41,657 nucleotides of DNA from a virus, in IMG/VR virus record IMGVR_UViG_3300024520_000018, one strand, 5' to 3'. The notes under the pieces were generated by a model. It did not search any database and had not been told where the DNA came from. It saw only the letters and a program-made list of their open reading frames with translations. Each line of letters starts with the position of its first letter. Positions within the stretch are counted from its first letter, which is position 1. Both the position numbers and the translations under genes were made by a program. Of the stretch, positions 1,600 to 41,657 are shown piece after piece.

Positions 1600-1776
1600 A
1601 TGGAAGAAGATGATGGCAATAGAACGTGTACAGTTTGCGATGGTCCCTTTGACATTATTGGAGAGGGCGGTATAGACGGATATATAGGAATTTTATCAGT
1701 AGCGTTCTGCCCTACTTGTTATGCAGGAATTGTGGATATGGTGCAACAACTGCATGGATTGGATGATGATGAGTAA
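1600..1776 (+). CDS. small Zn-ribbon-like protein (58 aa, below the ORF-track cutoff)
   Basis: My own translation is MEEDDGNRTCTVCDGPF...FCPTCYAGIVDMVQQLHGLDDDE, which carries CxxC...CxxC. Its stop overlaps the likely epimerase ATG (ATGAGTAA at 1769-1776). Confidence 0.45.
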   Translation: MEEDDGNRTCTVCDGPFDIIGEGGIDGYIGILSVAFCPTCYAGIVDMVQQLHGLDDDE

Positions 1777-2752
1777 TTATCTAGTTACAGGGGCATTTGG
1801 TTTCATTGGATCACACTTTGTAAATAAGATGTTGAAGGAAAACCATAAAGTAATTGGAATTGACTCCATGTCAACGGAATCTGATTTCTCTCTCAAACAA
1901 GAACGTCTTCACTTTCTGAACAACGCTGTCAAATACTTAGATAACAGTAATAAAAATCCTAGAGATTTTATGTTTATGGGGTTGGATTTGTCGGAAACCA
2001 GTTCCATAGAAAAATTGGGGCAGTTAAATGAAAAGATGAAGATAGATGCAGTCATTCATTTGGCAGGTAGTGCAGGGGTGAGGCGTTCGAATGAGGAACC
2101 AGCGAGGTATATACAGAATAATGTGATGTCTACAGTAAATTGTTTAGAATTTTGCCGAAAATTTTCGGTCCCCAAATTTGTATTAGCTTCCACTTCGAGT
2201 ATATATAGCGGTGCGAAGATGATTCCATTTATGGAACATGACAAAATAGGGAATATGTTGTCGGTATATGCGGAGTCAAAGAAGATGGCCGAAGAGGTCG
2301 GCTCCGTATATCACCGATTTCATGGGATTGATGTCTCTATATTACGTTTCTTCACTGTATATGGAGAAAAAGGCAGACCTGATATGAGTGTTAGCAAGTT
2401 TATTGACTGCATCAGCAACAATAAAGAACTGGTAATGTACGGAGATGGATCGCAATCAAGGGATTATACCCATGTACAGGACATTTGTGAGGGAATACAG
2501 AAGTCTTTGATATCCGTTGGATGCGAAATATTCAATTTAGGTAGAGATGAACCAGTCAGTGTCAAGGAAATTATAGAGAAACTAGAGAATATTATAGGGA
2601 AGAAGGCAAGTATACGTTCCGAACCAAGACATTCTTCCGATATAGACTGCACCAATGCCGATATATCGAAGGCGAAACGTATCTTAGACTGGACTCCGAA
2701 GATATCCATTGACGCTGGATTGAAAAGAGTATGGGAATATTATGGAAGATAG
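1769..2752 (+). CDS. NAD-dependent sugar epimerase (SDR), UDP-glucuronate 4-epimerase-like
   Basis: Motifs: LVTGAFGFIGSH (GxxGxxG), YAESKKMAE (YxxxK) and LRFFTVYGEKGRPDMSVSKF, which is typical of Cap1J/LpsL-type UDP-GlcA 4-epimerases. The track start at 1721 is probably too far upstream. Confidence 0.8.
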   Translation: MSNYLVTGAFGFIGSHFVNKMLKENHKVIGIDSMSTESDFSLKQERLHFLNNAVKYLDNSNKNPRDFMFMGLDLSETSSIEKLGQLNEKMKIDAVIHLAGSAGVRRSNEEPARYIQNNVMSTVNCLEFCRKFSVPKFVLASTSSIYSGAKMIPFMEHDKIGNMLSVYAESKKMAEEVGSVYHRFHGIDVSILRFFTVYGEKGRPDMSVSKFIDCISNNKELVMYGDGSQSRDYTHVQDICEGIQKSLISVGCEIFNLGRDEPVSVKEIIEKLENIIGKKASIRSEPRHSSDIDCTNADISKAKRILDWTPKISIDAGLKRVWEYYGR

Positions 2753-9680: not shown

Positions 9681-10922
9681 ATGCCAGCTACAACTACCAC
9701 TTTTGATGCGGTGTTGAAGGACTGGTTTCTAGGAAAAGTACGAGATACACTGAATGAAAAAGTAACAATGTTTGATATTGCTAACGCAGCTTCTGAACGT
9801 GTTGGTGGTAGAAGACTTGTTTATCCTGTCCACGTTGGTAGGAACTTTGGTGTAGGTACTAGAGCAGAACGAGGAACTTTACCTACTGCACAAAACGAAG
9901 TCTATGTAACAGCCACAGTATCACCAAAATATTGGTATGGTCGTATTGAAGTTTCCGCACAGGCTATGAAACAGTCTCAAGGAGATAGAGCAGCATTTGC
10001 TGAAGCTATGTCCGAGGAAATGGATAGAATGACTCGTAACAGTCGTAAGTATTTTAATAGGATGCTTTATTTTGGTAGTCGTGGTGATTTATCTACAGTT
10101 GCTTCTGACCAATCTTCGGTCGGTACAACAACTGTGAATGTAACATCTTCAACAGTAAATGTCGGAAGCCCACTTCGCTTTATTCAAGCTGGTATGATAC
10201 TAGATGGATTAAGTGCTTCAGGTGCTGCCACAGAGACATCTTCTGTATCTACTGACTTCACTTCTGCTACAGTAGTTTCCGCTACTGTCGGAGCAAGTGG
10301 GTCTTCCACTATTACATTTTCAGCAACAGTTACTGTCGTATCAGGAACGATTATGACGTTGACGGGATGTGGTTTTAACGATTTTAATGGTGTAAACGAT
10401 GGTATTGATTCCTCTGGAACATACGCTGGAGTGAGTCGTGATGCCTACAGTAACAAATCGTGGAGAGCCAATATTCTTGGAAATAGTGGAACTAATAGAC
10501 CTCTTACGCTCAACCTATTGCAACAAGCATGGGATGCTGCTTCAGAGGCTTCTGGTGAAGATGACACTACTACTCACCTTATTTCTCACTACAGTGTGAG
10601 GCGTGAGTATTTAGACCTTCTTACACCAGACGTGCGATTCACTGCACAAACACTGAAAGGTGGACATAAAGTATTAGACTTCAACGGAGCACAGTTCCGA
10701 TTTGAAGTAGATGCACCTTTCAATACTGTTTACGGAATCAATGCACCTTCATGGCATCTATATAAGATATCAGACTTTGAATGGGCAGATGAAGACGGAT
10801 CAGTATTAAGCAGAGTTAACAACATAGACTCATTTGAAGGATTTATGAGAATGTTCGGTAACTTTGGTACAGATGCACCGAATAAGAATTTCAGGATTAC
10901 TGATATTCAAGCAACACTTTAA
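9681..10922 (+). CDS. major capsid protein (HK97-fold expected)
   Basis: 413-aa ORF after the scaffold-like gene, with a strong RBS (GGAGTAAGCTATG) and a structured element downstream. Contains a Ser/Thr-rich stretch at about 10080-10360. Confidence 0.65.
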   Translation: MPATTTTFDAVLKDWFLGKVRDTLNEKVTMFDIANAASERVGGRRLVYPVHVGRNFGVGTRAERGTLPTAQNEVYVTATVSPKYWYGRIEVSAQAMKQSQGDRAAFAEAMSEEMDRMTRNSRKYFNRMLYFGSRGDLSTVASDQSSVGTTTVNVTSSTVNVGSPLRFIQAGMILDGLSASGAATETSSVSTDFTSATVVSATVGASGSSTITFSATVTVVSGTIMTLTGCGFNDFNGVNDGIDSSGTYAGVSRDAYSNKSWRANILGNSGTNRPLTLNLLQQAWDAASEASGEDDTTTHLISHYSVRREYLDLLTPDVRFTAQTLKGGHKVLDFNGAQFRFEVDAPFNTVYGINAPSWHLYKISDFEWADEDGSVLSRVNNIDSFEGFMRMFGNFGTDAPNKNFRITDIQATL

Positions 10923-11036: not shown

Positions 11037-11519
11037 ATGGCAATTAAAAATAGAAATATTGCAGCAAACAATCCAATGAAAAGTGAAATGCTTCGATTTG
11101 GATTTGCAGATTATGGTTCAGGCACAGCGTTAGCCGATACGAATCTATATATACCTGTTCCTCATAACGGAAGGGTAAAAGAAATTGTAGCTTTGGCAGG
11201 TGTTTCTGGTGGTGCTGGAAACTCTGGTTCGGTTACATTAAATTTCTATCGTGCTAATTCTTCTTCCATAGCATCAGCCACAACAACAAGTCTATTGGCT
11301 TCTGGTGGAATTAGTTTCAACTCGGGAACAACAGTTGGTTCTATCTCTACCGCTACGCTAAACACTTCTATTGTTACTGGCAATAAAGGTGGTATGGTAG
11401 TTAGTGCAGGAACAACATTACTGATTAACAGTGATTTTACCGCCACTTCTACAGTGAACTTTATACAAGGGTATATTCGTATTGAGTATGATGATGCCCC
11501 TGCGGATGACGGGAAATAA
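11037..11519 (+). CDS. Ser/Thr/Gly-rich virion protein (decoration or head-fibre candidate)
   Basis: 160-aa ORF following the capsid gene, with RBS GGAGAGCAAATATG. Contains low-complexity S/T tracts (ANSSSIASATTTSLLASGG...). Confidence 0.4.
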   Translation: MAIKNRNIAANNPMKSEMLRFGFADYGSGTALADTNLYIPVPHNGRVKEIVALAGVSGGAGNSGSVTLNFYRANSSSIASATTTSLLASGGISFNSGTTVGSISTATLNTSIVTGNKGGMVVSAGTTLLINSDFTATSTVNFIQGYIRIEYDDAPADDGK

Positions 11520-12059
11520 ATGAATCCTGATAGGTATATTCTAAACGAACTAAAACGATTAGATGAAAACTTATCGGTCCAATGGAATGGAAGGAAGTGT
11601 CGTTGGGAAGTTTTTTACCGAAGACATTTCCTTCGCCCATCGGAACGAAAAAGATTTAGCCACATAGCCACGTTCTATGATCGTGGAGTACCTATTAAAC
11701 TATATGAACCTAAACCCATAGATAGATGGCATATATGTTTTTGGGAAGGGGATAATGGTGAGTTCAGGACATTGGATTATGGATTGATACTTCAGTTAAA
11801 GGAATGGGATAACTGGAGACACGCAAGACCAGATGACATTTGGTTAGCAGCAGAAAAAGAAGAATACGAAGAAGAGAGAAAGAAATCAAGACAACAAAAA
11901 GAAATGTTTAAAGATATTGCGTTAGAAAATGATGGTGCTTTGAGAAAACAAATGGATGACTATACTTCTTTTAACAAAAGAGGTTGGCACGTTTGGACTC
12001 CGACAAATCATCGAGTAGGGATAGACTTTAAAAATAAAAAGAAAAAGGTGAAAACCTAA
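11520..12059 (+). CDS. hypothetical basic protein (179 aa)
   Basis: Abuts the previous stop (TAAATG). Trp/Arg-rich. No family recognised. Confidence 0.55.
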   Translation: MNPDRYILNELKRLDENLSVQWNGRKCRWEVFYRRHFLRPSERKRFSHIATFYDRGVPIKLYEPKPIDRWHICFWEGDNGEFRTLDYGLILQLKEWDNWRHARPDDIWLAAEKEEYEEERKKSRQQKEMFKDIALENDGALRKQMDDYTSFNKRGWHVWTPTNHRVGIDFKNKKKKVKT

Positions 12060-12751
12060 TGGCAACTACAGCAACTACCATTATAACCGAAGTAAGAACA
12101 TTATCGGATACAGATAGTGCAACAGCTACATTAAGTGATGCTCAAATATTGACAGCAGCAAACTCTGCACATGAACATTATTATGATTTAATTGTAGCTG
12201 CTGACGAAGGTCATTTTGAAGAAATACATACAGCAAGTTTAGTTGCTGATAGTCGTAATCTAAGCCCTGCTGTAACCTCTACATTTAGAAAAATTGATTT
12301 GGTCGAAGTCATACAAAGCGATGGAGACAGACAACCAGCTATTCCATTGAGTGCTAAAACAGAGAAGTTTTATTTTGAAAGTGGAAATACAACTGCTACA
12401 AGAAACGACCAATTTTATTATTATATAGAAGCAAATGCTATACAACTTGTACCTACCCCAACACAAGCAGCAACAGACGCTATTGAAGTTACCTTTGTTC
12501 CTCAAGCAACTAGACTTTCTACTACCACAACAGTAATAGATTGTCCAGATCGATGGTCAAAAGTTATTGTTTTGAGAACATTGTTAAATTTACAATTACG
12601 CCTAATGGATAATCGTGATCCTAGAGAAGAATTAGCTAATGAAGAAAAAACTCTAGTTCAAACGCTAGAGGGAAGGCAAAGACAATCTCCTCGAAGGATT
12701 GTACCTACAGATAATGAGGGTTCTACAGTTGACGGAATTTGGGTTGGATGA
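12059..12751 (+). CDS. putative head-tail adaptor or connector protein
   Basis: TAATG coupling. The call rests on position after the head genes and a 230-aa size only. Confidence 0.35.
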   Translation: MATTATTIITEVRTLSDTDSATATLSDAQILTAANSAHEHYYDLIVAADEGHFEEIHTASLVADSRNLSPAVTSTFRKIDLVEVIQSDGDRQPAIPLSAKTEKFYFESGNTTATRNDQFYYYIEANAIQLVPTPTQAATDAIEVTFVPQATRLSTTTTVIDCPDRWSKVIVLRTLLNLQLRLMDNRDPREELANEEKTLVQTLEGRQRQSPRRIVPTDNEGSTVDGIWVG

Positions 12752-13727
12752 ACAGTTTGAAGAAGTAGATTGTCCTTTATGTAGTTCAAAGAAACGTGAT
12801 GTATATTTTGAACATAATGATGATCCATACTTAAACCAATTAAAAGTACCAAAAGATTTTAAAGTATCTTTCTATTATTGTGATGATTGTGAACTCATAT
12901 ATCAATCTCCTAGATGGACTAAAAAAACAGCAGGTAGGTTTTATAGCAAGTTATATAGACCACAAACACCACAACAAAAGAATGTAGATTACAAGTTAAA
13001 GGATGCAGCAGATGTTTATGACTTCATTCACGAAGACAAGGTTTTCCCTAAATCAGGAAGGATGCTCGATGTGGGCACTGGCGAGGGATTGTTACCATAT
13101 ACCCATGAAAAGATGGGAGAGAATGGTGGGCCTAAGTGGGATACTTATGCGATAGAACCTAATAAAGTATATGCAGATTGGGCTAGGGCGAATAAGTTGT
13201 GTCAAGTGGAAACAGGGGAGTTTAAGAAGAAGTCTTGGCGTAACTTAACATTTGACTTAATTACAGCACAGCAAGTGTTAGAACATATACACGATCCTGT
13301 AGCTTTTTTAAAGTTGTGTAACGATAGATTATATTCCGATGGTTGGTTATTTATAGGAGTTCCCACAGTGGAGTATCCTTGGGGTAATGAATATAACCGA
13401 TTTAATATGATGTGCGATAACTTTACTGCTTCACCACATTTAACTTTATATACACCTAGAACATTAGGTAGAATGTTAAATAAGGCAGGATTTTATTTGG
13501 AACGATTAGACTATTACAGTAGAGGAATACGTTCCCTATCTCGCAAACTTCGCCCAAAGGAAACGCAAGAGCATTATGGTAGAGAGAATAGAAAGCGAAT
13601 CGAAGAAACCTTCAAAAACTGTTGTGCACTTGAACGGGAGCACTTGGCTAAACAACAGGAAGCTGTCAGCAGTGAAGGAGACAGCGAAAAGGATAAAGGA
13701 GTGGAAGTACCTGCTGTATCGAACTAA
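12699..13727 (+). CDS. class I SAM-dependent methyltransferase with N-terminal Zn-ribbon
   Basis: CPLCSS...CDDCELIYQSP (4-Cys ribbon) followed by motif I GRMLDVGTGEGLL and QQVLEHIHDP. The start is uncertain (TTG 12699, ATG 12714, TTG 12744). Confidence 0.75.
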   Translation: MYLQIMRVLQLTEFGLDEQFEEVDCPLCSSKKRDVYFEHNDDPYLNQLKVPKDFKVSFYYCDDCELIYQSPRWTKKTAGRFYSKLYRPQTPQQKNVDYKLKDAADVYDFIHEDKVFPKSGRMLDVGTGEGLLPYTHEKMGENGGPKWDTYAIEPNKVYADWARANKLCQVETGEFKKKSWRNLTFDLITAQQVLEHIHDPVAFLKLCNDRLYSDGWLFIGVPTVEYPWGNEYNRFNMMCDNFTASPHLTLYTPRTLGRMLNKAGFYLERLDYYSRGIRSLSRKLRPKETQEHYGRENRKRIEETFKNCCALEREHLAKQQEAVSSEGDSEKDKGVEVPAVSN

Positions 13728-14643
13728 ATGGCATAATGCAGGGAAAAAGTTTCTTAACTTGGTTTATACTCCAAAGTTTCCTATACATTTAGATATTGAA
13801 CTTAGCTATGCCTGTAACTTTAAATGTACCATGTGTCCACAGGCATACGATGAAAATGTAAAGGGAGCCATGAAGTATGAATTGGCTGATCGTTTGCTAA
13901 CAGAAGCTGCTGAGATGGGAGTCTCCAGTATTAAATGGAACTGGAGAGGGGAGGCAACTCTACATAAACAGATTGCTCAATTAACAAGGAAAGCAAAGGG
14001 TTTAGGTATTCCTGAAGTGCAGTTAAATACCAATGGAAATATGAGAGGTTGCAAGGTAGAAGATTTAATAGACGCTGGAGTAGATAGAATTATATTCAGT
14101 GTAGATGGGAATACGAAAGATACCTTTGAGAATATACGGATAGGTGGAGACTTTGACGAACTTACGGAAACGATTGAGCAAGCAGTTTCGTACCGAGAAA
14201 GTAAAGGGTTATCTAAACCGTTTATTCGTGTGCAAATGTGCAAGCAAAAAAGTAACGAACACGAAGTCGAAGGATTCGTCAGAAAGTGGAAAGATATAGT
14301 TGACGATGTAAGAGTATCGGCAGTGATGGATAGAGGAGCTGACGGAAACTTTCTGATAGACGATTGGGTTGCAGTGGAGAGAGCAGTATGTAAGCAACCT
14401 TTTCAAAGATTAACGATTGGATATGATGGCAAAGTAATGGGATGTTGTGCTGATTGGTTTGAAAATAGACCAGTAGGCGATGCCAATACACATAGTTTGG
14501 AAGAGATTTGGAACAATTCTATAGAGTTACAAGATATGAGGGATGCACAACATGAAGGCAGGCAAGAAGAAACTGCACCATGCGAGTCATGTTGGGCTAA
14601 AGACGCATGGGTATGGAGGTTAGGAAATGCCAAACATAAATAG
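13576..14643 (+). CDS. radical SAM enzyme with C-terminal SPASM/twitch-type Cys cluster
   Basis: CNFKCTMC (CX3CX2C, nt 13813-13836), then CKQPFQRLTIGYDGKVMGCCADW and APCESCW. The only in-frame ATG upstream of the cluster gives a 152-nt overlap with the methyltransferase. A GTG near 13669 is an alternative start. Confidence 0.8.
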   Translation: MVERIESESKKPSKTVVHLNGSTWLNNRKLSAVKETAKRIKEWKYLLYRTKWHNAGKKFLNLVYTPKFPIHLDIELSYACNFKCTMCPQAYDENVKGAMKYELADRLLTEAAEMGVSSIKWNWRGEATLHKQIAQLTRKAKGLGIPEVQLNTNGNMRGCKVEDLIDAGVDRIIFSVDGNTKDTFENIRIGGDFDELTETIEQAVSYRESKGLSKPFIRVQMCKQKSNEHEVEGFVRKWKDIVDDVRVSAVMDRGADGNFLIDDWVAVERAVCKQPFQRLTIGYDGKVMGCCADWFENRPVGDANTHSLEEIWNNSIELQDMRDAQHEGRQEETAPCESCWAKDAWVWRLGNAKHK

Positions 14644-15013
14644 ATTTAATAAGCCTGATATATTGGAAAGATATAATGAGATGGGACCAGGGCGTAATAA
14701 TCCGATGCAAGAACTTGAGCCATTTACTCCTTGGGATGATAGAAAAGGATTAGTAGCTCCTGGAATGCCTAACGATCCTTTAATAGACCCTAAAATGGAA
14801 CCTTTTTTAAGAGATTTTTTTCCTACTATAAGACAGTTTGCTCCATCTCCTACAGCACCAAATTATAGCATGGGAAAGATAAAACCTGATGATGGATGGG
14901 GCCCTAGATCGCCAGAAGAAAAACAGGAAATTATGAGACAAGAAGAAGAACAACAAAAAATGGCAATATTTGAGTTATTAAGGCAGTTATTACAACAAAG
15001 AAGACAAATCTAA
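14627..15013 (+). CDS. Pro-rich small protein, paralog 1 (128 aa)
   Basis: Starts MPNI..., ends ...FELLRQLLQQRRQI. Overlaps the rSAM stop by 17 nt. RBS GGAGG. Confidence 0.55.
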   Translation: MPNINRFNKPDILERYNEMGPGRNNPMQELEPFTPWDDRKGLVAPGMPNDPLIDPKMEPFLRDFFPTIRQFAPSPTAPNYSMGKIKPDDGWGPRSPEEKQEIMRQEEEQQKMAIFELLRQLLQQRRQI

Positions 15014-15049
15014 ATGGTTGATATTTTAGGTGGGTATGGGGGTTAGAAA

Positions 15050-15313
15050 ATGCCAAACATAGTAGGACCTAACAAAAATCCTTTTGTAGAATTTAATGGA
15101 TTAGCTAATATACCAGATAAAAGTAATGTATATTCTCCAATGAGATTTATGGAAAACCCAAATTTCAGATCAAGTATGCCTCAATTTACGCCAAGAGGAG
15201 GTGTAGGGAATATGGGTCAATTCGGAATGATAGGTTCCCCTTCCCAACCAGTAGTTAATCCAAATATGCAATTAAGAGCAATTATAGAATTATTAAGAAG
15301 AATGGGTATGTAA
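15050..15313 (+). CDS. Pro/Asn/Met-rich small protein, paralog 2 (87 aa)
   Basis: Starts MPNI..., ends ...IELLRRMGM. Its initiation region is a 29/31-nt copy of the one at 14608-14638. Confidence 0.55.
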   Translation: MPNIVGPNKNPFVEFNGLANIPDKSNVYSPMRFMENPNFRSSMPQFTPRGGVGNMGQFGMIGSPSQPVVNPNMQLRAIIELLRRMGM

Positions 15314-15925
15314 ATGGCAGAAAATATAGATTGGGAATTTATAAGAGAGAAAGAAGGTTTTGAACTTGTAGGCTATGTTCCAATCACAAAAAAATTAAAG
15401 TCTGGTGTAACGATAGCGTCTGGATTTGATTTAGGTCAAAAAAACGAGGGCGATCTACAAGGTTTACCCCCCACTATTATAAAAAAATTAATTCCTTATT
15501 TAGGAATAAAAGGGGAGGAAGCAAACAAAAAAGCATCAAATTTAACAATAACAGAAGATGAAGCTAACATAATTAATAAGTTTGCTAAAACAAAGTCTTT
15601 AAATAAACTTAGCTCTGATTGGGAAAATGCTACTGGTTATTCGTTAAGTGAACTATCTCCAGCACAAGCAACCGCTTTAGCTTCTGTAGGATTCCAATAT
15701 GGAGATATGAAATCAAAAACTCCTAAATTCTGGAAATATGCTACAAGTGGAAATTGGGACAAAGCATATAATGAGTTGATGGATTTTAAAGACGAACATC
15801 CTACAAGAAGAAAATCAGAAGCTGATCTTTTGTTTAAAGAAATGGGTGTTCCTTCTGATAGTATGTTTGGAGAAGCTATGCAATTATCAGACAATAATAT
15901 CAATACCATAAGAGAGGGTTATTAA
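15314..15925 (+). CDS. pesticin-type (T4-lysozyme-like) muramidase
   Basis: WEFIREKEGFELVGYVPI...SGVTIASGFDLGQ...ASVGFQYG...HPTRRKSEADLL matches the pesticin C-terminal/lysozyme-like family as I remember it. Confidence 0.7.
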   Translation: MAENIDWEFIREKEGFELVGYVPITKKLKSGVTIASGFDLGQKNEGDLQGLPPTIIKKLIPYLGIKGEEANKKASNLTITEDEANIINKFAKTKSLNKLSSDWENATGYSLSELSPAQATALASVGFQYGDMKSKTPKFWKYATSGNWDKAYNELMDFKDEHPTRRKSEADLLFKEMGVPSDSMFGEAMQLSDNNINTIREGY

Positions 15926-16023
15926 TGCCAAAAGTAGGTGGAAAACATTATTCTTATACTAAAAAAGGTTACAAAGCAGCAGCGAAGGCACGAAAAAAAA
16001 TGAAAAGAGGAAAAAAGAAGTAA
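15925..16023 (+). CDS. 32-aa highly basic micro-ORF (below the track cutoff)
   Basis: My translation is MPKVGGKHYSYTKKGYKAAAKARKKMKRGKKK. It has a TAATG overlap with the lysozyme gene and its stop abuts the next ATG (TAAATG). Confidence 0.35.
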   Translation: MPKVGGKHYSYTKKGYKAAAKARKKMKRGKKK

Positions 16024-16698
16024 ATGATTCCCATTGTAGTACAGGCAAGAATGGATTCAAGACGTTTGTATGGCAAGGTGTTGATGCCTATTACGGGTGG
16101 TTGTGCTTTAAGTCATCTGTTGGATAGATTGTTTCTCACCGAAATGAAAGTCATTGTTGCTACTACCAATAGAGATACCGATAAACCCTTACAAATGTTT
16201 TGTGAACATTATGAAATAGATGCTTTCTATGGTGCGGTAGAGATACCTAAAAGGCTATGGTCAGTGGCAGAGTTAAACAATGCAGACCATATAGTGAGAG
16301 TTACCGCAGACGATATACTAGTAGACCCTGACTACCTTAAAATGGCAGTGAGGGAGCACGTAGAGAATGGAGCAGACTTTACGCATATACCAAAGTTACC
16401 AAAAGGTTTTGACTGCGAAGTAATTTCTAGGAACGCATTACTGGAATTGATGAAGATAGATTCCGAAACAGAGTATATAGGAAAGATATTAAAAGATAAG
16501 ACTTTATTTAAAGTACATGAAGTAGAGGTAGATAAAAGGCATAGAAAGCGTTTCAACTATGAGTTAAATGAATACAAAGACTTGAAAAAATTAAGAGAGT
16601 TATTCTCTGATTTGCATAGTAATCATTCACCGCCATTTTGTCTCGATCACGTTATCGAGTATTTAGATTATCAAAAGTCAAAGGAAAAAGTGCGATGA
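16024..16698 (+). CDS. sugar cytidylyltransferase (SpsF/PseF/KdsB-type, CTP_transf_3-like)
   Basis: N-terminus IPIVVQARMDSRRLYGKVL and VRVTADDILVDP fit the (I)QARxxSxRLPGK ... RxTxDxPxxDP pattern of CMP-sugar synthetases. Confidence 0.75.
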   Translation: MIPIVVQARMDSRRLYGKVLMPITGGCALSHLLDRLFLTEMKVIVATTNRDTDKPLQMFCEHYEIDAFYGAVEIPKRLWSVAELNNADHIVRVTADDILVDPDYLKMAVREHVENGADFTHIPKLPKGFDCEVISRNALLELMKIDSETEYIGKILKDKTLFKVHEVEVDKRHRKRFNYELNEYKDLKKLRELFSDLHSNHSPPFCLDHVIEYLDYQKSKEKVR

Positions 16699-17306
16699 AC
16701 CCATTCTTCACAGTCTATATTCCGTTTCATACTTATGGTTATGCTATTAAAGCAAAAGATGCGTTACGTTCCTTAGATGCTCAATCGTTCACTTCATTTG
16801 AAACGATACTGATAGCGAATGGTACTTCGTTTCCAAGTTGGATGAGTGAAGGCGATGTATACAAAAGCACTGGCGTATTTGGTAGGAAGATAATAGGTGG
16901 GGAATACCATACGTTGGGAGCAGCAGCCAACGCAGCAATAGCGTTAGCAAAGGGTAATTGGATAGTTAGGTTAGATGCTGATGATTACCTTGAATCAAAC
17001 GCTTTGTGGCACTTTGTAAATACGATAGAGCAACACTCTGACAAACCTATTATAGGAGTGCAAGGACATTGGGATGAAGATAATCCTGATAAAGTAATGG
17101 GAGCAGGGTTAGCGATACAGACAAGTCTATTGCAAGAAGTTTGTGGGTACAACGAAGAAGAACCTATCAATGATGGAGAGTCTATTGTTCGGAAGATATC
17201 TAATGAAGTTTTTGGAACTGCTACATCAAAATGGGGATTAGTCAGAACAGAGAAACCTATTTATAATTATGAACGACATGAAGGGAGTATGTCATGTCCA
17301 AGTTAG
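16695..17306 (+). CDS. family 2 glycosyltransferase (GT-A fold)
   Basis: FTVYIPFH...LRSLDAQSFTSFETILI, then LGAAANAAIALAKGNWIVRLDADDY (DxD). ATGA overlap with the upstream gene. The track start at 16638 is probably too early. Confidence 0.7.
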   Translation: MNPFFTVYIPFHTYGYAIKAKDALRSLDAQSFTSFETILIANGTSFPSWMSEGDVYKSTGVFGRKIIGGEYHTLGAAANAAIALAKGNWIVRLDADDYLESNALWHFVNTIEQHSDKPIIGVQGHWDEDNPDKVMGAGLAIQTSLLQEVCGYNEEEPINDGESIVRKISNEVFGTATSKWGLVRTEKPIYNYERHEGSMSCPS

Positions 17307-18097
17307 CGAAGTTATTCGGACCTGATGCGAAATACCCCTTAGTACGTTCCTATCAAGAGAAAGAAGCACCAGAGTTAGAGTTTATTGCAGGGCCATGTTC
17401 TGTAGAGAATTTGGAACAGATATATGCCATAGCTTGTAAGGTACGAGAAAATGGAGCAACCATGTTACGAGGTGGTTGTTATATATATGGAACGTACCCT
17501 CCGAAAAATAGTGGATTTGTAGCAGATAGATCACTATCTCTTTCAACAGCAGCAGATGGAAACAAACTTCCTTGGATAGTGGAAGTGATGGATGCACCAG
17601 ATATGCAACACGTTACAGATGCAGATTGGATACAGATAGGTATGCGTCATGCACAACATTATCCGTTGTTAAAAGCGATAGCTTCTTATGGAAAGAAAGT
17701 ATTATTAAAGCGTGGTTCATGGATGACAGTCGATGAAACGCTTGGGGCTATAGAGTATTTGCTTCAACATGGGGCAGAAGATGTAGCAATATGCGAGAGA
17801 GGAATCGTTAGCTTTGAAGACCATTGTAGGTGGAGTTTCTCTGCTTCGTTTATTGCGATGATAAAAGAATATACTGCATTGAAAATAGTAGCTGATCCTT
17901 CTCATGGCAGTGGAGACAGAAAGTTAGTTCCTAGACTTGCGAGAGCTGGAGTGGCAGCAGGTGCTGATGGAGTGTTATGTGAAGTACATCCTAACCCCAA
18001 CGAGTCTGTTTCCGATGCAGAACAAGCGATTGATTATGACACCTTTGAACAAGTAGTGAAGGGGTGTAAAGAAATAAAGGGATATGTTTATGGCTAA
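17294..18097 (+). CDS. DAHP/KDO8P synthase family aldolase (type I-beta-like), atypical PEP loop
   Basis: IAGPCSVEN, IQIGMRH, VLLKRG, ICERGI, ADPSHGSGDRKLV and GADGVLCEVHPNPNESVSDAEQA. The canonical RGGAFKPRTSPY loop is replaced by RGGCYIYGTYPPKNSGF. Confidence 0.65.
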   Translation: MSKLAKLFGPDAKYPLVRSYQEKEAPELEFIAGPCSVENLEQIYAIACKVRENGATMLRGGCYIYGTYPPKNSGFVADRSLSLSTAADGNKLPWIVEVMDAPDMQHVTDADWIQIGMRHAQHYPLLKAIASYGKKVLLKRGSWMTVDETLGAIEYLLQHGAEDVAICERGIVSFEDHCRWSFSASFIAMIKEYTALKIVADPSHGSGDRKLVPRLARAGVAAGADGVLCEVHPNPNESVSDAEQAIDYDTFEQVVKGCKEIKGYVYG

Positions 18098-19679
18098 CAA
18101 CCTTCAAATGTATAGAGTAGAGTTTGGTCAAAATATAGGTGGAATTAATGATTCTACACAAATAACGTCTGTAAAACAAAATGAAGCCTTAGACATACAT
18201 AATGTAAGATTAATACCTACCGGTGGAATACAGAAACGTAAAGGATATTATGTTGTCAATACAGCTAGTCTTGTCGGTTCTGGAACGATTACTGGGATTT
18301 TTAATTATTTACGTTTTACTGGAAACTCAGACTTAATCGTATGTGTGAATAGTGGTACTTCTGCGAGTAAAATATATAAGAAAGACGCTGGAACGAATAC
18401 GTTTACTTCTATTACACCTTCTGGAACATTCGCGGGTGGCGATGTAACTTTCGCTGTATCTAACGATATATTGATGATTGCGTCTGATGGTGGTTCTAAT
18501 ATTTTAAAATGGGATGGTTCTGCTACTGCTTGTACGGATTTGAATACTGCTACTGCTCCTTTAGGGCAAGTTGTAACAGATTGGAATAGACACGCTGTTG
18601 CTTTAAAAATACCAGCAAGAGGAAGTAATTTCGAAATATCACATCAAGGTGATTCTACACAGTGGAGAAATTCTGATCGGTTTCCTACAGACAGACAAAC
18701 TGTAGGTGCTACATCTTTACTAGGCAAACTGTATGTTTTTACTACAGATAGAATGTATGCTGTATCTGGAAATGACAGAGACAACATATCCATGCTTCCA
18801 GTTAGACGTTCCGTAGGAGGAACAAACCAAAGAAGTATAGTAAACGTAGCAAATAGAAACTTGATTGTATGGCCTTGGCGTGGAAACTTTTACGAATTTG
18901 ATGGAACCACTACCAACATAATTTCAAATAGGTTAGAAAGACCTTTAGCAAATACGAGTGATTTTTTTAATGTAAATCAATCTCTTTTTGATAATATACA
19001 AGGGGTAAATATAGCTTCAGAATCAAGAGTAAGTTTTTTGATTGCTGCAAGAAATAAAACACAAAATAGTTTCGTACTAAATTACCATTACGATTTAAGA
19101 ACACCAGACCCTAAGACTGGGAAAAGTATAGGTGCTTGGACTGTAGATAAATACGATAGAAACTTTGCGTATCTCGCTGTATCAGTAGAGGATGAAAAAG
19201 AGATTTTATATGCTGGAGATTACGATGGTCATGTATGTAGGTTAGATGTAGGGGATGCAGATGGTGATTCTTCCGAAGATGCAAACGATGGAAATGCTAT
19301 CCCATCAAGGTATCAGACTGGTCCATTTCACAACAATATGCCAGACATGACAAAAAGATGGAGAGAAATCATTCCTGTCGTTGGTCAAACTTCTAGTGGT
19401 ACTGTAACGATATCTACCGCAGAGAATTGGGCTGGTAGTTTTATAACCGCAGATACTGTTGCTTTGACTACAGGAGGGTTTGCTTCCTATTGGGGAGTAT
19501 CTAAATGGGGAGAAGGTCTTTGGGGAGCAGCGATATCGGTAATTAAACGATTATCTTTATCAAACCGAAGCGAAGCTCTTTCTATTAAGTTTTCTGATTC
19601 CAGTAAAGACCCTGCATGGCGAATCGATACTTGGGTATTGAGATTCCAGATACTGCCTGGTCTAAGGAGATTCCCATAA
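18090..19679 (+). CDS. tail structural protein (nozzle, tubular or baseplate-like; family not recognised)
   Basis: 530-aa ORF whose ATG overlaps the upstream stop (ATGGCTAA). Beta-rich composition. Lies directly upstream of the tail-fibre genes. Confidence 0.4.
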   Translation: MANNLQMYRVEFGQNIGGINDSTQITSVKQNEALDIHNVRLIPTGGIQKRKGYYVVNTASLVGSGTITGIFNYLRFTGNSDLIVCVNSGTSASKIYKKDAGTNTFTSITPSGTFAGGDVTFAVSNDILMIASDGGSNILKWDGSATACTDLNTATAPLGQVVTDWNRHAVALKIPARGSNFEISHQGDSTQWRNSDRFPTDRQTVGATSLLGKLYVFTTDRMYAVSGNDRDNISMLPVRRSVGGTNQRSIVNVANRNLIVWPWRGNFYEFDGTTTNIISNRLERPLANTSDFFNVNQSLFDNIQGVNIASESRVSFLIAARNKTQNSFVLNYHYDLRTPDPKTGKSIGAWTVDKYDRNFAYLAVSVEDEKEILYAGDYDGHVCRLDVGDADGDSSEDANDGNAIPSRYQTGPFHNNMPDMTKRWREIIPVVGQTSSGTVTISTAENWAGSFITADTVALTTGGFASYWGVSKWGEGLWGAAISVIKRLSLSNRSEALSIKFSDSSKDPAWRIDTWVLRFQILPGLRRFP

Positions 19680-19981
19680 TGCCATCTAAAAAACTTATAC
19701 CTCCTGTTTTTATACAGGATTTAACAGATGAATTTGCTCCTTCTATTATTCACGAAAATGTTGAAAATATATACAACTTTTTAGATAGTCATTTTGAATG
19801 GGGATCAGCAACATCAAATACAGGAACTACTTTATCAAGAATTAAGTCAACAGACTATATTGTAAATATCACCCCTTTAGCAGAACCAGGAAGTGCGACA
19901 GTTACAAAAGCTACTGCATCTTTCACTTACACAACAAGTGCTACAGTGGCATTTAATTATTTAGTTATTGGATCAAGTTAG
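19679..19981 (+). CDS. small tail-associated protein (100 aa)
   Basis: TAATG coupling at 19677-19681. The in-frame ATG at 19679 is more plausible than the track start at 19616. Confidence 0.45.
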   Translation: MPSKKLIPPVFIQDLTDEFAPSIIHENVENIYNFLDSHFEWGSATSNTGTTLSRIKSTDYIVNITPLAEPGSATVTKATASFTYTTSATVAFNYLVIGSS

Positions 19982-19989
19982 GAGTTATT

Positions 19990-21840
19990 ATGGGAACAGT
20001 TTCTCGCCCTTACACTTACACTGCTGGTGATGTTATTCAACCAGCCGAAGTTACAGATAACGAGACTACTTTATATACTCTCGTTAATGGAAATTTAGAC
20101 AACGACAACATAGATTCTTCGGCAGGAATTAAGGCAGCTAAACTTGATCTTGCCTCAGCGACTACAGCTTCATTCTCTACGAATGTGCTTATGTCTTTGT
20201 CTTCCACAATTACATTGGGAACAACAACACAAACGATTGCTGTAGGTAGTTCTGCTACAGTAACTATCACCGCTAGTGGCGGAGTTGCCGAAATCGGCAA
20301 AATGACTGTCATAGCTAGTGCTACTGTCGGCAATCTTAAAGTGTCAGGTACTGCGACATTGGGTGCATTGGCTACGCTAGGTACATTGGTCGTATCAGGA
20401 ACTGCTACGATAAGTGGTCTGGTATGTAGTGGCACTGCGACTGTCGGAGATTTGAAAGTATCCAACACAGTTACCATACCGAACTTAGTGGTATCAGGAA
20501 CAGCCACACTTGGTAATATTATAGCGAGTGGTACAGCAACTTTAAAGTCAATCGTAGTAAGTGGAACTGCTACCATTGGTGATTTAAAGGTAAGCAATAC
20601 TGTTACGTTACCTCGAATAGTAGTGAGTGGCACTGCAACGATAGGAAACATGATTATAAGTGGCACAGCTACTTTAAAATCTATTATTGTAAGTGGTACT
20701 GCGACATTAGGTGCGATGTTAGTGAGTGGAACTGCTACCTTCTCTACTGTACCCTTATTCCCTAACAACACTATTGAGACAGCAGATATTCAAGACAATG
20801 CAGTAACTCTTGCGAAGATGGCAGGATTGGCGAGAGGAAAGATTATTTATGGTGATGCTTCTGGTGATCCAGCAGCATTGACAGTAGGTTCTACTTCTAC
20901 AGTATTAACAACAGATGGTGTTGATATTTCATGGGCTGCTGTTAGTGGAGGAACTTCTACTTACGCTAGCATAGTGGTATCAGGAACAGCGACATTGGGT
21001 AATATCAAAACTAGTGGAACTATATCTGTATCTGCTACAGCGACAATGGATCATTTGTTAGTAAATGGCTCAGGAGCAAGTATGGCTCATTTTAAAGCTA
21101 CTGGAGCCGATGTAGATCATGTTTTAATAGAAAGTACTGATGGTGGTGCAGGCGAAGGCCCAGGGATGGCGTTCTACAGAAACAGTGCAAGTCCTGCTGA
21201 TAATGATCAGACTGGTAGAATACGTTGGTATGGTAATGATTCGGCTGGTGCTAAACGTCATATTGGTGGTGTTAATTGTAAATTTGCCGATGTTACCAAT
21301 ACCTCGATAGATTCACAAATAAGTATGGTTTCTTATAAGGACAACTCTGAACTAGTAGCATTGACAGTTCATGGGTCAGACGTAACTGTAGCAGGTAATC
21401 TTACAGTTGGAGGATCATTATCTGGTGCTGGTGGAAAAGTATTACAAGTTGTAAATATGTCAACCACGAGTGTTACAACTACCACATCATCATCTTATGT
21501 AGACACTAATTTAACTCTAGGAATCACACCTTCCGCTTCTTCTTCTGTTGTAATTGTTGAATGGGCAGGAACTTTCAATCTTGGTGGAACCAGAGGAACG
21601 TGGGCTGACATTGGGTTAGAGAGAGGAACTTCATCAATTCATTCATGGGGTGGTGAATACGCTGAAGGATTAGCTACTGGAAACTTTGATTTGCACTTTC
21701 CTTTAAGTGGGTCAATGAAAGACTCACCGAATACAGCAGGAGCAGTAACATATACAGTGCAGATCAGGACTGCTGGTGGAACCGCTAAGATGATAAGTCG
21801 AGGCACAGGCATTATGATTATATCAGAAATAGGAGCATAA
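19990..21840 (+). CDS. tail fibre or tail spike with SGTAT repeat domain
   Basis: N-terminus ...YTAGDVIQPAEVTDNETTLYTLVNGNLDNDNIDSSAGIKAAKLDL is the conserved phage-fibre N-terminal pattern. It is followed by 11 copies of SGTAT at roughly 14-aa spacing. Confidence 0.7.
   Translation: MGTVSRPYTYTAGDVIQPAEVTDNETTLYTLVNGNLDNDNIDSSAGIKAAKLDLASATTASFSTNVLMSLSSTITLGTTTQTIAVGSSATVTITASGGVAEIGKMTVIASATVGNLKVSGTATLGALATLGTLVVSGTATISGLVCSGTATVGDLKVSNTVTIPNLVVSGTATLGNIIASGTATLKSIVVSGTATIGDLKVSNTVTLPRIVVSGTATIGNMIISGTATLKSIIVSGTATLGAMLVSGTATFSTVPLFPNNTIETADIQDNAVTLAKMAGLARGKIIYGDASGDPAALTVGSTSTVLTTDGVDISWAAVSGGTSTYASIVVSGTATLGNIKTSGTISVSATATMDHLLVNGSGASMAHFKATGADVDHVLIESTDGGAGEGPGMAFYRNSASPADNDQTGRIRWYGNDSAGAKRHIGGVNCKFADVTNTSIDSQISMVSYKDNSELVALTVHGSDVTVAGNLTVGGSLSGAGGKVLQVVNMSTTSVTTTTSSSYVDTNLTLGITPSASSSVVIVEWAGTFNLGGTRGTWADIGLERGTSSIHSWGGEYAEGLATGNFDLHFPLSGSMKDSPNTAGAVTYTVQIRTAGGTAKMISRGTGIMIISEIGA
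20335..20745 (+). repeat. in-frame tandem repeats inside the tail-fibre gene (about 42-nt period; 132-nt higher-order duplication at 20446-20577 / 20578-20709)
   Basis: GDLKVSNTVTIPNLVVSGTATLGNIIASGTATLKSIVVSGTATI is followed directly by GDLKVSNTVTLPRIVVSGTATIGNMIISGTATLKSIIVSGTATL. Confidence 0.8.
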
Positions 21841-21841
21841 G

Positions 21842-22186
21842 ATGTCAGACATTCAAGAAGAAATCAAAGTATATATTATTGATGCAATTTTAGCTTTAGC
21901 TCCAAACGCAAAAGTAACTGTGCAAGGGGAAGAAATAGAAAAAGTAACATGGGAAGATGGAAACCCCAATAACATTACTAAGCAACAAATATTAGATAAA
22001 AAAGCAGAGCTAGAAACTAAATATACTAACGAGGAATATAAAAGAAATAGAGAAAAAGCGTATCCTACGTTTAGTGATTTTGTCGAAGCATATACTGAGA
22101 AAGAAATCTTAACTAGAAGCGATAAATGGATGGCATATATAGAGGCTTACAATAAAGTACGAACTGATTTTCCGAAACCAGAATAA
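21842..22186 (+). CDS. hypothetical protein after the tail fibre (114 aa; fibre-assembly or accessory candidate)
   Basis: Starts 1 nt after the fibre stop. No family recognised with confidence. Confidence 0.55.
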   Translation: MSDIQEEIKVYIIDAILALAPNAKVTVQGEEIEKVTWEDGNPNNITKQQILDKKAELETKYTNEEYKRNREKAYPTFSDFVEAYTEKEILTRSDKWMAYIEAYNKVRTDFPKPE

Positions 22187-22529: not shown

Positions 22530-22546
22530 CCGCCCTAGAGGTGTAT

Positions 22547-23494
22547 ATGGATAACGCAGGTCTTCTAAAGAAGGAACAGTTAAAAGCTAGGAACGAAAAG
22601 ATAATGCAAGGTTGGTTACACAAATGGATATCCAATACTGCAACTAACTATGGAAGTAAACTGTTAGGCGAAGAAGAAAACTTTTCTAACTTGTTCATGG
22701 CACATAAAAACAAACCTGCATTGATTACAGGATCAGGACCTAGCCTTGAAGATACAATACCTCATATAAAGAACTTTGATGGGTTGGTTATCAGTACCAA
22801 TAGTTCTATGAGTCTGTTAATGAAGAATGGTATTAAACCAGACTATGTACATATTTTTGATGGTCAATATGAACCAAAGAGAATAGGGAACCTTCCCATA
22901 GATGATGTTACATTGATATGTGCGACCTTTGTTTTGCCAGAGATGGTAAAGTTTTGGAAAACGAAAGGGAAGGTATATGGGTTCAGTGCTTTCGATCCAG
23001 AGGAAGCATGGTTTAAAAAGTATATGTGGTATATGTACCGAGACTATGTAGGTATTCCCACTAGTGGTTCGGTAGGCCCTAACGCTATTCGGTTAGCAGC
23101 CTATATGGGTTGCAATCCCATTATCTTAACAGGGTTAGACCAAACCTTCACTGGTGGTAAGTATCGAGTAGATCAATACGACTACATTGATAATAAATAT
23201 GTATTAAAAGATTTTGATCACGAAGAAGCGATTAACAAGCAACCTATCAGTTATCACAATGGCAAACAGCTTTGGTATATCACTGGGATGATGTACCGAA
23301 CAGCGATTGTAGGTATAGCAGATGAGTTAAGGGATAAAGGATTATCGGTTGTTCGTTGTCATAATAAAGGCGATAAGAATTTTTATAAGGTAGAAGGTGT
23401 TCTACTAGAAGAAACTAAAGGAATTGAAGTAATGAACGCTACCATGAGTGGCGTATGGAAGAATGAACTTCCAAGATATAACTTAGTAGCATAG
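22547..23494 (+). CDS. Maf/DUF115 (MptE-like) family protein, putative protein glycosyltransferase
   Basis: KPALITGSGPSLEDTIPHIKNFDGLVISTNSSMSLLMKNGIKPDYVHIFDG and GSVGPNAIRLAAYMGCNPIILTGLDQTF fit the DUF115 core (GPSL ... KPD ... GSV ... G-D). The ATG at 22547 follows AGAGG; the track start is GTG 22541. Confidence 0.6.
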   Translation: MDNAGLLKKEQLKARNEKIMQGWLHKWISNTATNYGSKLLGEEENFSNLFMAHKNKPALITGSGPSLEDTIPHIKNFDGLVISTNSSMSLLMKNGIKPDYVHIFDGQYEPKRIGNLPIDDVTLICATFVLPEMVKFWKTKGKVYGFSAFDPEEAWFKKYMWYMYRDYVGIPTSGSVGPNAIRLAAYMGCNPIILTGLDQTFTGGKYRVDQYDYIDNKYVLKDFDHEEAINKQPISYHNGKQLWYITGMMYRTAIVGIADELRDKGLSVVRCHNKGDKNFYKVEGVLLEETKGIEVMNATMSGVWKNELPRYNLVA

Positions 23495-41606: not shown

Positions 41607-41657
41607 TTTAAAGCCTCCTATTAAAAGAAATAAATAATAATAATATTTATACATTAA
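41531..41657. repeat. Terminal direct repeat, copy 2 (identical to 1-127)
   Basis: Same comparison as for copy 1. Confidence 0.95.

Follow-up and report, generated by a model that had tools for sequence, protein, structure and literature searches.

In cellular nab pathways, NeuB, whose substrates are unphosphorylated aldoses, condenses such an aldose with phosphoenolpyruvate (PEP), and a cytidylyltransferase (NeuA, PseF, LegF, or SpsF) then activates the product as a cytidine monophosphate (CMP) sugar. Related genes occur in viruses: the giant virus CroV has genes of the pathway for 3-deoxy-D-manno-octulosonate (Kdo). Furthermore, mycobacteriophages with Che8/Corndog-type genes for a family 2 glycosyltransferase (GT2) and a methyltransferase reportedly glycosylate their virions (Freeman et al. 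2023, cited in PMC11256854). In the cyanomyovirus S-SCSM2R, annotated kdsA and kdsB genes have been read as host cell wall genes (PMC12801897). Here, we describe a locus in the IMG/VR virus record IMGVR_UViG_3300024520_000018, a stretch of 41,657 nucleotides (nt) that is called the window in its full length, in which a cytidylyltransferase, a GT2, and a PEP aldolase are encoded in direct succession. On balance, our data favor the view that these three genes belong to a conserved five-function phage module that would be a version of a cellular surface-glycan sub-pathway and would make and CMP-activate a sialic-acid-like sugar.

As in CroV and S-SCSM2R, a putative ulosonic-acid synthase stands beside a CMP-sugar synthetase in a viral genome, but those viruses have genes annotated as canonical KdsA/KdsB and genomes of >200 kb, whereas the window represents a 41.5-kb phage with a non-Kdo variant that includes a radical S-adenosylmethionine (SAM) enzyme and a methyltransferase. 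With the mycobacteriophages it shares phage GT2 and methyltransferase genes, which are thought there to decorate capsid and tail proteins, but mycobacteriophages use nucleoside diphosphate (NDP) sugars of the host and have no ulosonic-acid synthase, cytidylyltransferase, or radical-SAM enzyme. With the nab pathways it shares the predicted sequence of PEP condensation with an unphosphorylated aldose and subsequent CMP activation, an SpsF-type cytidylyltransferase, and the joint encoding of synthase, cytidylyltransferase, and tailoring enzymes. Unlike the nab pathways, the phage has no NeuB, whose step would be taken by a barrel of the 3-deoxy-D-arabino-heptulosonate 7-phosphate (DAHP) synthase (DAHPS) family, and it has no aminotransferase, acetyltransferase, or NeuC/PseG-type hydrolase.

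The first of the three genes (16024-16698, plus strand) encodes an SpsF-type (COG1861) cytidylyltransferase of 224 amino acids (aa) with the signatures IVVQARMDSRRLYGKVL and RVTADDILVDP, the second (16695-17306, plus strand) a small, soluble GT2 with a GT-A fold and the motif RLDADDY (203 aa from the ATG at 16695), and the third (17294-18097, plus strand) a DAHP_synth_1 PEP aldolase of 267 aa with the motifs IAGPCSVE, LLKRG, ICERG, DPSH, and EVHPNP..SD. An open reading frame (ORF) check and profile searches bore out the three ORFs and the motifs that an initial annotation had given for them, and the overlapping junctions described there could be read directly from the sequence: ATGA at 16695-16698, an overlap of 13 nt at 17294-17306, and ATGGCTAA at 18090-18097 (the gene at 18090 has an alternative ATG at 18084). 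All five module genes, that is, these three and the genes of the radical-SAM enzyme and the methyltransferase upstream, are under purifying selection, with ratios of nonsynonymous to synonymous substitution rates (dN/dS) of 0.02 to 0.22 against natural variants that are ~95% identical (0.08 for the cytidylyltransferase, 0.02 to 0.09 for the GT2, and 0.12 to 0.22 for the methyltransferase). Positions 1-127 of the window are identical to positions 41531-41657, and this exact terminal overlap of 127 bp indicates that the window is probably a complete genome of ~41.53 kb, either circularly assembled or terminally redundant.

By its sequence, the aldolase derives from a type I-beta DAHPS and is neither an ordinary DAHPS nor KdsA. 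Its closest sequences are type I-beta DAHPS with 38 to 46% identity; the match to Pfam DAHP_synth_1 (PF00793) has an E value of 3.1e-44 (151 bits; cut-off, 25.5), and the best PDB match is 1vs1 (2.9e-55). Consistent with this, the AlphaFold2 model (predicted local distance difference test [pLDDT], 88.7) gave Foldseek template modeling (TM) scores of 0.81 to 0.84 to the I-beta DAHPS 1vs1, 1rzm, and 1zco. Like these enzymes of A. pernix, T. maritima, and P. furiosus, respectively, to which it is 38 to 44% identical, the phage protein has kept the fold and the metal and PEP sites. Indeed, the metal ligands Cys35, His204, Glu230, and Asp241 as well as the PEP motifs RGG, QIGxR, KRG, and ERG (R59-G61, Q114, R118, K139-R140, and E168-G170) are invariant in the alignment.

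Unlike the type I-beta DAHPS, the phage aldolase has (R/I/V)xGTY in place of KPRTS and a short N-terminal extension with [WF]GPxPxYP, and it is tied to sugar-activation genes and not to shikimate genes. In the corresponding loop of DAHPS and of Kdo-8-phosphate synthase (KDO8PS), Lys is catalytic, and Arg and Thr bind the phosphate of erythrose 4-phosphate (E4P) or arabinose 5-phosphate (A5P). In the window, RGGCYIYGTYPP aligns with RGGAFKPRTSPY of the solved DAHPS, and the sugar-phosphate loop KPRTS is lost: RGGAF-KPRTS-PY has been exchanged for RGGCY-IYGTY-PP, so that the window reads I-Y-G-T-Y at the KPRTS position, and other members of its clade have R-x-G-T-Y there. This clade of homologues, here called GTYP, has the common motifs RGG[CV][YF](R/I/V)xGTYP and, at the N terminus, [WF]GPxPxYP. 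A neighbor-joining tree shows it as monophyletic and places another viral clade ("KPCTYP") beside it as its sister, with both apart from canonical DAHPS. Most GTYP members are on viral or phage-sized contigs; a strictly phage-specific clade was considered and rejected, as some members lie on contigs of 263 to 576 kb. Since the KPRTS loop is gone, a sugar phosphate is unlikely as the acceptor, contrary to the reaction of PEP plus sugar phosphate proposed in the initial annotation. With its PEP and metal sites retained but no loop left for a sugar phosphate, the aldolase would instead condense PEP with an unphosphorylated aldose to a 3-deoxy-2-ulosonic (sialic-acid-like) sugar.

That the gene is an ordinary auxiliary gene of aromatic amino acid synthesis, i.e., a true DAHPS unrelated to its neighbors, would agree with its nearest sequences and folds, and virome surveys label such genes "DAHP synthase, amino-acid metabolism" (e.g., K01626 [PMC13303688]). 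This reading is hardly credible. Apart from the loss of the loop for the phosphate of E4P, the protein scores below both curated NCBIfam cut-offs for DAHPS (NF006421, 252 versus 335 bits; TIGR01361, 231 versus 268 bits), it has no regulatory domain (neither ACT nor chorismate mutase), no other shikimate gene was found in the complete genome, and the gene is constantly linked to cytidylyltransferase, GT2, and radical-SAM genes. Its separation from an aromatic-pathway DAHPS in the initial annotation thus holds. Viral DAHPS-like genes with other loops also usually adjoin cytidylyltransferases. Two such loop classes were seen, "KPCTYP" (L039, L042, L044, L046, L050, L068, and L080, on contigs of 29 to 173 kb) and "KPRSSP(F/H)R" (L048-L067, L075, L078, and L081); genes of the former are near a cytidylyltransferase and mostly a GT2, often with an epimerase and a UDP-glucose dehydrogenase in addition, and those of the latter usually adjoin a cytidylyltransferase. 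Viral "DAHP synthases" generally seem to be tied to sugar activation and not to aromatic amino acids.

Somewhat more speaks for a Kdo pathway of the canonical kind, in which KdsA and KdsB would boost lipopolysaccharide (LPS) synthesis of the host, but this reading is still very unlikely. KDO8PS is the second-closest family of the aldolase by profile and by fold (TM score of ~0.8 at 22 to 24% identity), the weak NCBIfam matches of the cytidylyltransferase are to KdsB models, and kdsA and kdsB have been reported in a cyanomyovirus (PMC12801897). However, the KDO8PS equivalog models reach only 79, 75, and 50 bits on the aldolase (cut-offs, 242, 314, and 457), PDB matches to KDO8PS are partial and no better than 1e-12, the KANRS motif is absent, and the KdsB models reach 19 to 33 bits at cut-offs of 155 to 281. 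Furthermore, KdsC and KdsD types were not detected in the genome, the obligatory partners, radical-SAM enzyme and methyltransferase, are foreign to the Kdo pathway, and the cellular equivalent described below relies on NeuB and not on KdsA. The Kdo/KDO8P-type route suggested in the initial annotation is therefore not upheld. NeuB itself was not found in the genome either, and the NeuB model PF03102 gave 20.3 bits on the aldolase, which is below its cut-off of 22.1.

The assignment of the cytidylyltransferase to the CMP-sugar synthetase family, and more precisely to the SpsF/COG1861 subgroup, was confirmed by Pfam, PDB, and the names of homologues. The cytidylyltransferase matches CTP_transf_3 (PF02348) at 1.7e-13 (51 bits; cut-off, 22.6), and its best PDB match is the Leptospira cytidylyltransferase 6oew (2.8e-11). 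The N-terminal CTP-binding motif ARxxSxRLxGK is present, with QARMDSRRLYGK aligning to QARMGSTRLPGK of 6oew, the T(G/H)D motif is retained (RVTADD), and homologous phage proteins in which the cytidylyltransferase is fused to a GT2 bear the name SpsF at JGI. In B. subtilis, genetic evidence shows that the use of legionaminic acid depends on SpsF (PMC7439481). By its family membership, the phage enzyme would convert the ulosonic acid to the CMP-sugar. The GT2 matches Glycos_transf_2 (PF00535) at 6.5e-8 (33 bits; cut-off, 23.3), and R92, D94, A95, D96, and D97 are invariant in 33 sequences. Its AlphaFold2 model is of low confidence (pLDDT, 69); the Foldseek neighbors are generic GT2 enzymes, namely 6p61 (uncharacterized), TarP, TarS, K4CP, and SpsA.

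The combination of these genes is conserved among phages. A scan of viral contigs yielded 80 loci, and co-occurrence was judged on those GTYP loci that had enough flanking sequence. In 20 of 20 such loci, which represent at least three phage lineages, the GTYP aldolase was found together with a radical-SAM enzyme with a SPASM domain, a cytidylyltransferase/GT2, and a Methyltransf_23-type methyltransferase, and the radical-SAM gene neighbored the cytidylyltransferase and the aldolase in every case. In contrast, loci with a canonical KPR(T/S)S DAHPS-like gene, searched with the window proteins (phmmer, E ≤ 1e-5), had a match to the cytidylyltransferase only in L069 and to the radical-SAM enzyme only in L042 and L077, and none had the full set; an iterated search revealed generic cytidylyltransferases beside many of them. 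Hence, the boundary drawn around three genes in the initial annotation was too narrow, and the unit has at least five genes, including the upstream radical-SAM and methyltransferase genes and, in the lineage of the window, probably also a downstream Maf-like gene.

In the window the module is split: the methyltransferase gene (12699) and the radical-SAM gene (13576) are followed by genes for two small proteins, the lysozyme gene, a 32-aa ORF, and then the core three genes. A large group of phages (group 2) on contigs of ~41 to 47 kb, of which ±10 kb around the module was covered, has the order Gly-rich fiber, radical-SAM enzyme, cytidylyltransferase-GT2 fusion (438 aa), small ORFs, aldolase, methyltransferase fused to tetratricopeptide repeats (TPR), and YkuD-lysozyme. 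A third lineage, which has a Mu-type portal, carries the cytidylyltransferase-GT2 fusion, the aldolase, and the methyltransferase upstream of the portal and before two unannotated ORFs, which may be the terminase. Thus, cytidylyltransferase and GT2 are a single fused protein in two other phage lineages. The window cytidylyltransferase is 30% identical to the N-terminal half of one such fusion (P0121), and the window GT2 matches its C-terminal half. At E ≤ 1e-5, 757 proteins belong to this fusion family; identities of the best 120 range from 47 to 100%, and many of these are on contigs of 40 to 46 kb.

Metagenomes and 185,579 species genomes were searched for the GTYP loop with a degenerate DNA pattern. 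The metagenomes gave 85 stretches, and 75 of the 80 that were retrieved encode a GTYP aldolase; 63 of these 75 fragments also contain one or more of the partner genes. The species genomes gave 9 stretches, only 4 of which (two on one contig) encode the aldolase, in three assemblies and on contigs of 31 to 65 kb. In GenBank phages, tblastn with the aldolase found only host-like canonical matches in short or unannotated records, the cytidylyltransferase-GT2 fusion found generic GT2 matches only, and the radical-SAM enzyme found a single weak match; the module is therefore absent from those records. The module is spread over many uncultured phages.

A counterpart in cells points to the function. 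Homologues of the radical-SAM enzyme with 34 to 47% identity are found in cells on long contigs, and in seven of seven cellular loci examined, the gene is part of a surface-glycan cluster with NeuB and cytidylyltransferases. Homologues that neighbor NeuB, a cytidylyltransferase, and a GT2 are 38 to 47% identical. L096 (a 600-kb ENA contig) and L099 (a JGI contig) have radical-SAM enzyme, NeuB, cytidylyltransferase, a GT2-cytidylyltransferase fusion, and a further NeuB; in L100, the radical-SAM gene is followed by a single NeuB-cytidylyltransferase-GT2 protein of 1053 aa; and another locus has radical-SAM enzyme and aminotransferase together with two fusions, NeuB-cytidylyltransferase and NeuB-GT2. 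In L097, Methyltransf_23, radical-SAM enzyme, GT2-cytidylyltransferase, and cytidylyltransferase lie within a legionaminic-acid-like cluster, and the same set is accompanied by a GT30-like transferase, Wzx, and Wzy in L106 (a Deltaproteobacteria assembly). L107, from a Scalinduaceae assembly, lacks a GT2 but encodes NeuB, two cytidylyltransferases, a GT30-like transferase, radical-SAM enzyme, and methyltransferase. The window proteins match these cellular genes with E values of 1e-80 to 1e-88 (radical-SAM enzyme), 4e-17 to 4e-27 (cytidylyltransferase), 8e-7 to 3e-15 (GT2), and 3e-16 (methyltransferase). More specifically, the cytidylyltransferase matches the stand-alone gene after NeuB (L096 and L099) and, within the triple fusion of L100, residues 354-576; the GT2 matches the corresponding domains of the fusion proteins in cells.

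Homologues of the phage radical-SAM enzyme, cytidylyltransferase, GT2, and methyltransferase are thus fused or adjacent to NeuB in nab clusters, which corroborates the logic of ulosonic-acid synthesis and CMP activation seen in the initial annotation. A GTYP aldolase was found in none of the five cellular loci whose DNA was scanned (L096-L100). The simplest reading would be a non-orthologous displacement, in which a DAHPS-derived barrel takes the PEP condensation step of the cellular NeuB in the phages. Such a role of the aldolase would also fit the loss of its phosphate-binding loop, because the substrates of NeuB are unphosphorylated. The recurrent bacterial unit of radical-SAM/SPASM enzyme, NeuB, cytidylyltransferase, and GT2, with or without Methyltransf_23 (L096, L097, L099, L100, L106, and L107), was not described in the literature searched, and its radical-SAM/GT2/methyltransferase sub-unit is uncharacterized even in cellular nab-type clusters.

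The two remaining enzymes of the module may tailor the sugar or its precursor. The methyltransferase (12699..13727, plus strand; PF13489, 2.5e-19) is of the Methyltransf_23 type with an N-terminal Cys4 zinc ribbon; its homologue directly adjoins the aldolase in group 2 phages, where it is the TPR fusion, and lies beside the radical-SAM gene in the cellular clusters L097 and L106. The radical-SAM enzyme (13576..14643, plus strand; Pfam Radical_SAM, 7e-13; SPASM, 2e-14) has a C-terminal SPASM/twitch domain and the CxxxCxxC motif CNFKCTMC. Its nearest solved relative, in the core domain only, is the sugar-acid decarboxylase BlsE (7vob; 1e-11). Its longest ORF overlaps the methyltransferase gene by 152 nt (13576-13727), and homologues align only from residue ~28 of the query on, so that translation probably begins at an internal GTG or TTG close to 13672, 3' of 13576. 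A role as a maturase of proteins or of ribosomally synthesized and posttranslationally modified peptides was set aside, given that all cellular loci examined link the enzyme to sugar genes and that BlsE is its closest solved relative. A cytidylyltransferase-like domain fused to radical-SAM/SPASM also exists in spirochetes (NCBIfam TIGR04321, "spiro-SPASM"), and this model matches the cytidylyltransferase (8.9e-5) and the radical-SAM enzyme (4.9e-19) of the window; judged from its domains, it is a third, independent fusion that joins the two functions. Literature searches for "spiro-SPASM" and for "radical SAM + NeuB" returned nothing relevant.

The further path of the activated sugar may lead to the virion. 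A gene downstream of the core genes (22541..23494, plus strand) encodes a protein of 317 aa with an MptE-like/Maf-like domain (PF01973; 4.9e-29, 102 bits versus a cut-off of 34.6); it also matches the NCBIfam PseD domain (2.6e-10; NF050051, 39.5 bits versus a cut-off of 670), and its sole PDB match is Maf 5mu5 (7.7e-5). Maf enzymes place CMP-activated pseudaminic or legionaminic acid on Ser/Thr of flagellin. With these flagellin glycosyltransferases (5mu5; PseD) the phage protein shares the central MAF_flag10/MptE-like domain but, unlike them, it has 317 aa instead of ~600 to 670 (666 aa in 5mu5) and no flanking domains for flagellin binding. L003, a relative with a 57% identical aldolase, has kept the gene in the same place. 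We consider the Maf-like protein a candidate CMP-nonulosonate-type protein glycosyltransferase; it would be the best candidate in this lineage for the final transfer and favors a protein as the acceptor, possibly in the virion. Indeed, the capsid protein (9681-10922) has an insertion with a 40-aa stretch of 53% Ser/Thr, the next protein (11037-11519, 160 aa) reaches 50%, and a fiber-like protein of 616 aa (19990-21840) contains 11 SGTAT repeats. These regions are candidate O-glycosylation surfaces, although such a composition is common in phage structural proteins. With the Maf-like gene, the Ser/Thr-rich capsid, the SGTAT fiber, and no integrase, decoration of the virion is our leading, if tentative, guess for the target, and a Ser/Thr-rich component such as the capsid insertion or the tail fiber may be the acceptor. 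A fuller version of this scheme, in which an undescribed ulosonic acid is made by a NeuB-replacing enzyme from PEP and an unphosphorylated aldose tailored by the radical-SAM enzyme and the phage "sialylates" its own virion via a minimal Maf-like transferase, is unlikely. If true, it would be the first virion glycosylation with phage-encoded synthase, activating enzyme, and transferase for an acidic sugar; the aldose would probably still derive from the host.

The same pathway could instead be directed at the host envelope, with the CMP-sugar entering LPS, capsule, S-layer, or flagellin glycans, e.g., for superinfection exclusion or to prevent progeny from binding to debris. The homologous cellular unit is part of Wzx/Wzy-type surface-polysaccharide clusters, the prophage genes epaA/epaB are a precedent (PMC12053666), and kdsA/kdsB of a cyanophage have been read as cell wall modification genes (PMC12801897). 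However, the complete genome revealed neither an integrase nor a lysogeny module, and a late change of the host surface would then be of little use. Furthermore, genes of the Gtr type and for a flippase, a polymerase, or a membrane glycosyltransferase are absent, the GT2 has by eye no obvious membrane-spanning segment, and the Maf-like domain family is known for the glycosylation of soluble protein (flagellin). We therefore regard an envelope target as doubtful, though it deserves consideration.

A third possible target is DNA, with the module supplying an activated sugar acid for hypermodification that is attached by the GT2 or by a TET-associated glycosyltransferase (TAGT). Phage DNA glycosyltransferases can add a Kdo-like ulosonic acid and heptoses to 5-hydroxymethylcytosine, and cytidylyltransferases are present in the clusters (bioRxiv 10.1101/2023.12.21.572611). 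As in these clusters, glycosyltransferase and cytidylyltransferase genes occur here, and the genome has a strong homologue of the TET-associated/beta-glucosyl-HMC-type DNA glycosyltransferases (34264-35115, minus strand; Pfam, 1e-50; phrog_842, 4e-54), adjoining the primase/helicase and UDP-glucose dehydrogenase (36832-38172, minus strand) genes. But the described clusters, with their Kdo-like sugar on a phage macromolecule, are anchored on 5mYOX or ThyS, and Pfam and PHROG scans of the ORFs of the complete genome detected no TET/5mYOX, ThyS-type hydroxymethylase, or cytosine methyltransferase. The TAGT gene is 16 kb away on the opposite strand in the replication module, a TAGT homologue was near the module in 0 of 75 metagenome fragments and 0 of 36 viral loci, and the cellular counterpart is a surface-glycan unit. 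A DNA target is thus quite improbable.

Several observations weigh against a CMP-sugar pathway that ends on the virion. The position of the catalytic Lys in the aldolase is taken by Ile or Val in the window lineage (Arg in others), and without the loop Lys, the mechanism must differ or the activity may be impaired. In the (L/I)D(T/Y)xED motif of the cytidylyltransferase, Asn replaces the first Asp in the window and in L003, and every other aligned member has the conserved Asp. The two replacements leave room for an altered or reduced activity. The GT2 has a DxD motif, and every structural neighbor with a known donor uses NDP-sugars and not CMP-sugars (with the model at a pLDDT of 69); moreover, two cellular clusters (L106 and L107) have a separate GT30-like transferase. 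For these reasons, the GT2 may have its place within the pathway instead of being the CMP-sugar transferase of the last step: of the role assigned to it in the initial annotation, the GT2 family and the DxD motif stand, and the transfer of a CMP-sugar is doubtful. The GT2 would then either transfer the sugar or, as its DxD motif suggests, act on an NDP-sugar, and it might, more speculatively, release the free aldose, like PseG/NeuC in nonulosonic-acid pathways. The Maf-like gene is restricted to this lineage and absent near the module in others; a scan of related loci found it in near-identical phages only. The module occupies three different genomic positions in the three lineages, i.e., between adaptor and putative tail genes, between fiber and endolysin genes, and upstream of the Mu-type portal, and because of this, its location in the late block says little in favor of a role in the virion. 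Finally, a few GTYP aldolases are on the long contigs mentioned above.

The genes around the module are arranged in two blocks. On the plus strand, there are genes for a small terminase, a large terminase that looks split, portal, capsid, an SU10-type adaptor (from 12059; Pfam, 3e-11), and large putative tail proteins, with the module between the head-tail adaptor and the putative tail genes; on the minus strand are the primase/helicase, ERF, UDP-glucose dehydrogenase, and TAGT-type glycosyltransferase genes. The chain from the lysozyme gene (15314-15925, plus strand; Pesticin/lysozyme family, 4.8e-35) to the tail genes was called gap-free in the initial annotation. This is true, but solely by way of a basic, lysine-rich ORF of 32 aa (15925..16023, plus strand) that had been overlooked: its ATG overlaps the lysozyme stop by 1 nt (TAATG), and its own stop abuts the ATG at 16024. 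All junctions from 12059 to 22186 are overlaps or gaps of ≤36 nt, and from 15314 to 22186 the gaps are ≤8 nt. As judged from these junctions, the module is likely cotranscribed with the structural genes; a promoter and terminator scan showed no enrichment over shuffled sequences. The genes at 18090, 19679, and 19990 are probably tail genes, considering their position 3' of the SU10-type adaptor, a weak PHROG match, and the repeat-rich 616-aa protein. PDB sequence searches with the 531-aa putative tail protein and with the adaptor gave no significant match, and the label "tail operon" therefore rests on position.

Upstream, an NDP-sugar epimerase/dehydratase of the short-chain dehydrogenase/reductase type (1721..2752, plus strand; PF01370 and PF16363, ~1e-50) matches epimerases of the cellular clusters at 1e-41 and 3.5e-40, whose genes immediately precede the radical-SAM gene in L096 and open the cluster in L099; it is a possible accessory supplier of a sugar precursor. 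A further gene (2742-3044, plus strand) encodes a DUF1599 "nucleotide modification associated" protein. The large terminase is apparently in two parts, an ATPase (4224-4898) and a nuclease (5172-6101), corresponding to phrog_2 positions 273-414 and 436-589, and the 273 nt between them hold an ORF of 113 aa (4871-5212); an intron, an intein-like insertion, or a frameshift could account for this, as could a gene that is truly split. Between the radical-SAM and lysozyme genes, two paralogous Pro/Asn-rich small proteins (14627-15013 and 15050-15313) start with MPNI and have an ELLRxx amphipathic tail but no family match; they could be ejection or scaffold-like proteins, or substrates. Besides the hypermodification enzymes named above, the TAGT-carrying complete genome also shows no DNA polymerase. 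The capsid protein is only 25 to 28% identical to capsids of Arthrobacter and Microbacterium phages, and megablast with 12 kb of the window found zero nucleotide matches in GenBank phages.

In sum, phage sugar-nucleotide genes, kdsA/kdsB in a cyanomyovirus, giant-virus Kdo genes, and mycobacteriophage virion glycosylation are already known; new are a synthase that derives from DAHPS and has a rebuilt acceptor loop, the constant association of this synthase with four partners (radical-SAM enzyme, SpsF-type cytidylyltransferase, GT2, and methyltransferase), the resemblance to an uncharacterized cellular unit with NeuB, and the spread of the module in many uncultured phages. If true, the re-tooling of a DAHP synthase barrel for the job of NeuB would be a testable case of a specificity shift in the PEP-aldolase superfamily. 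The module defines a widespread radical-SAM/cytidylyltransferase/GT2/methyltransferase unit in phages and in bacterial surface-glycan clusters, and the amino-acid-metabolism label K01626 is probably wrong for many viral genes, which are usually tied to cytidylyltransferases. Should the sugar end on the virion, self-glycosylation of phages would extend from actinobacteriophages with host sugars to phages that make an acidic sugar, with consequences for adsorption, stability, and immune recognition.

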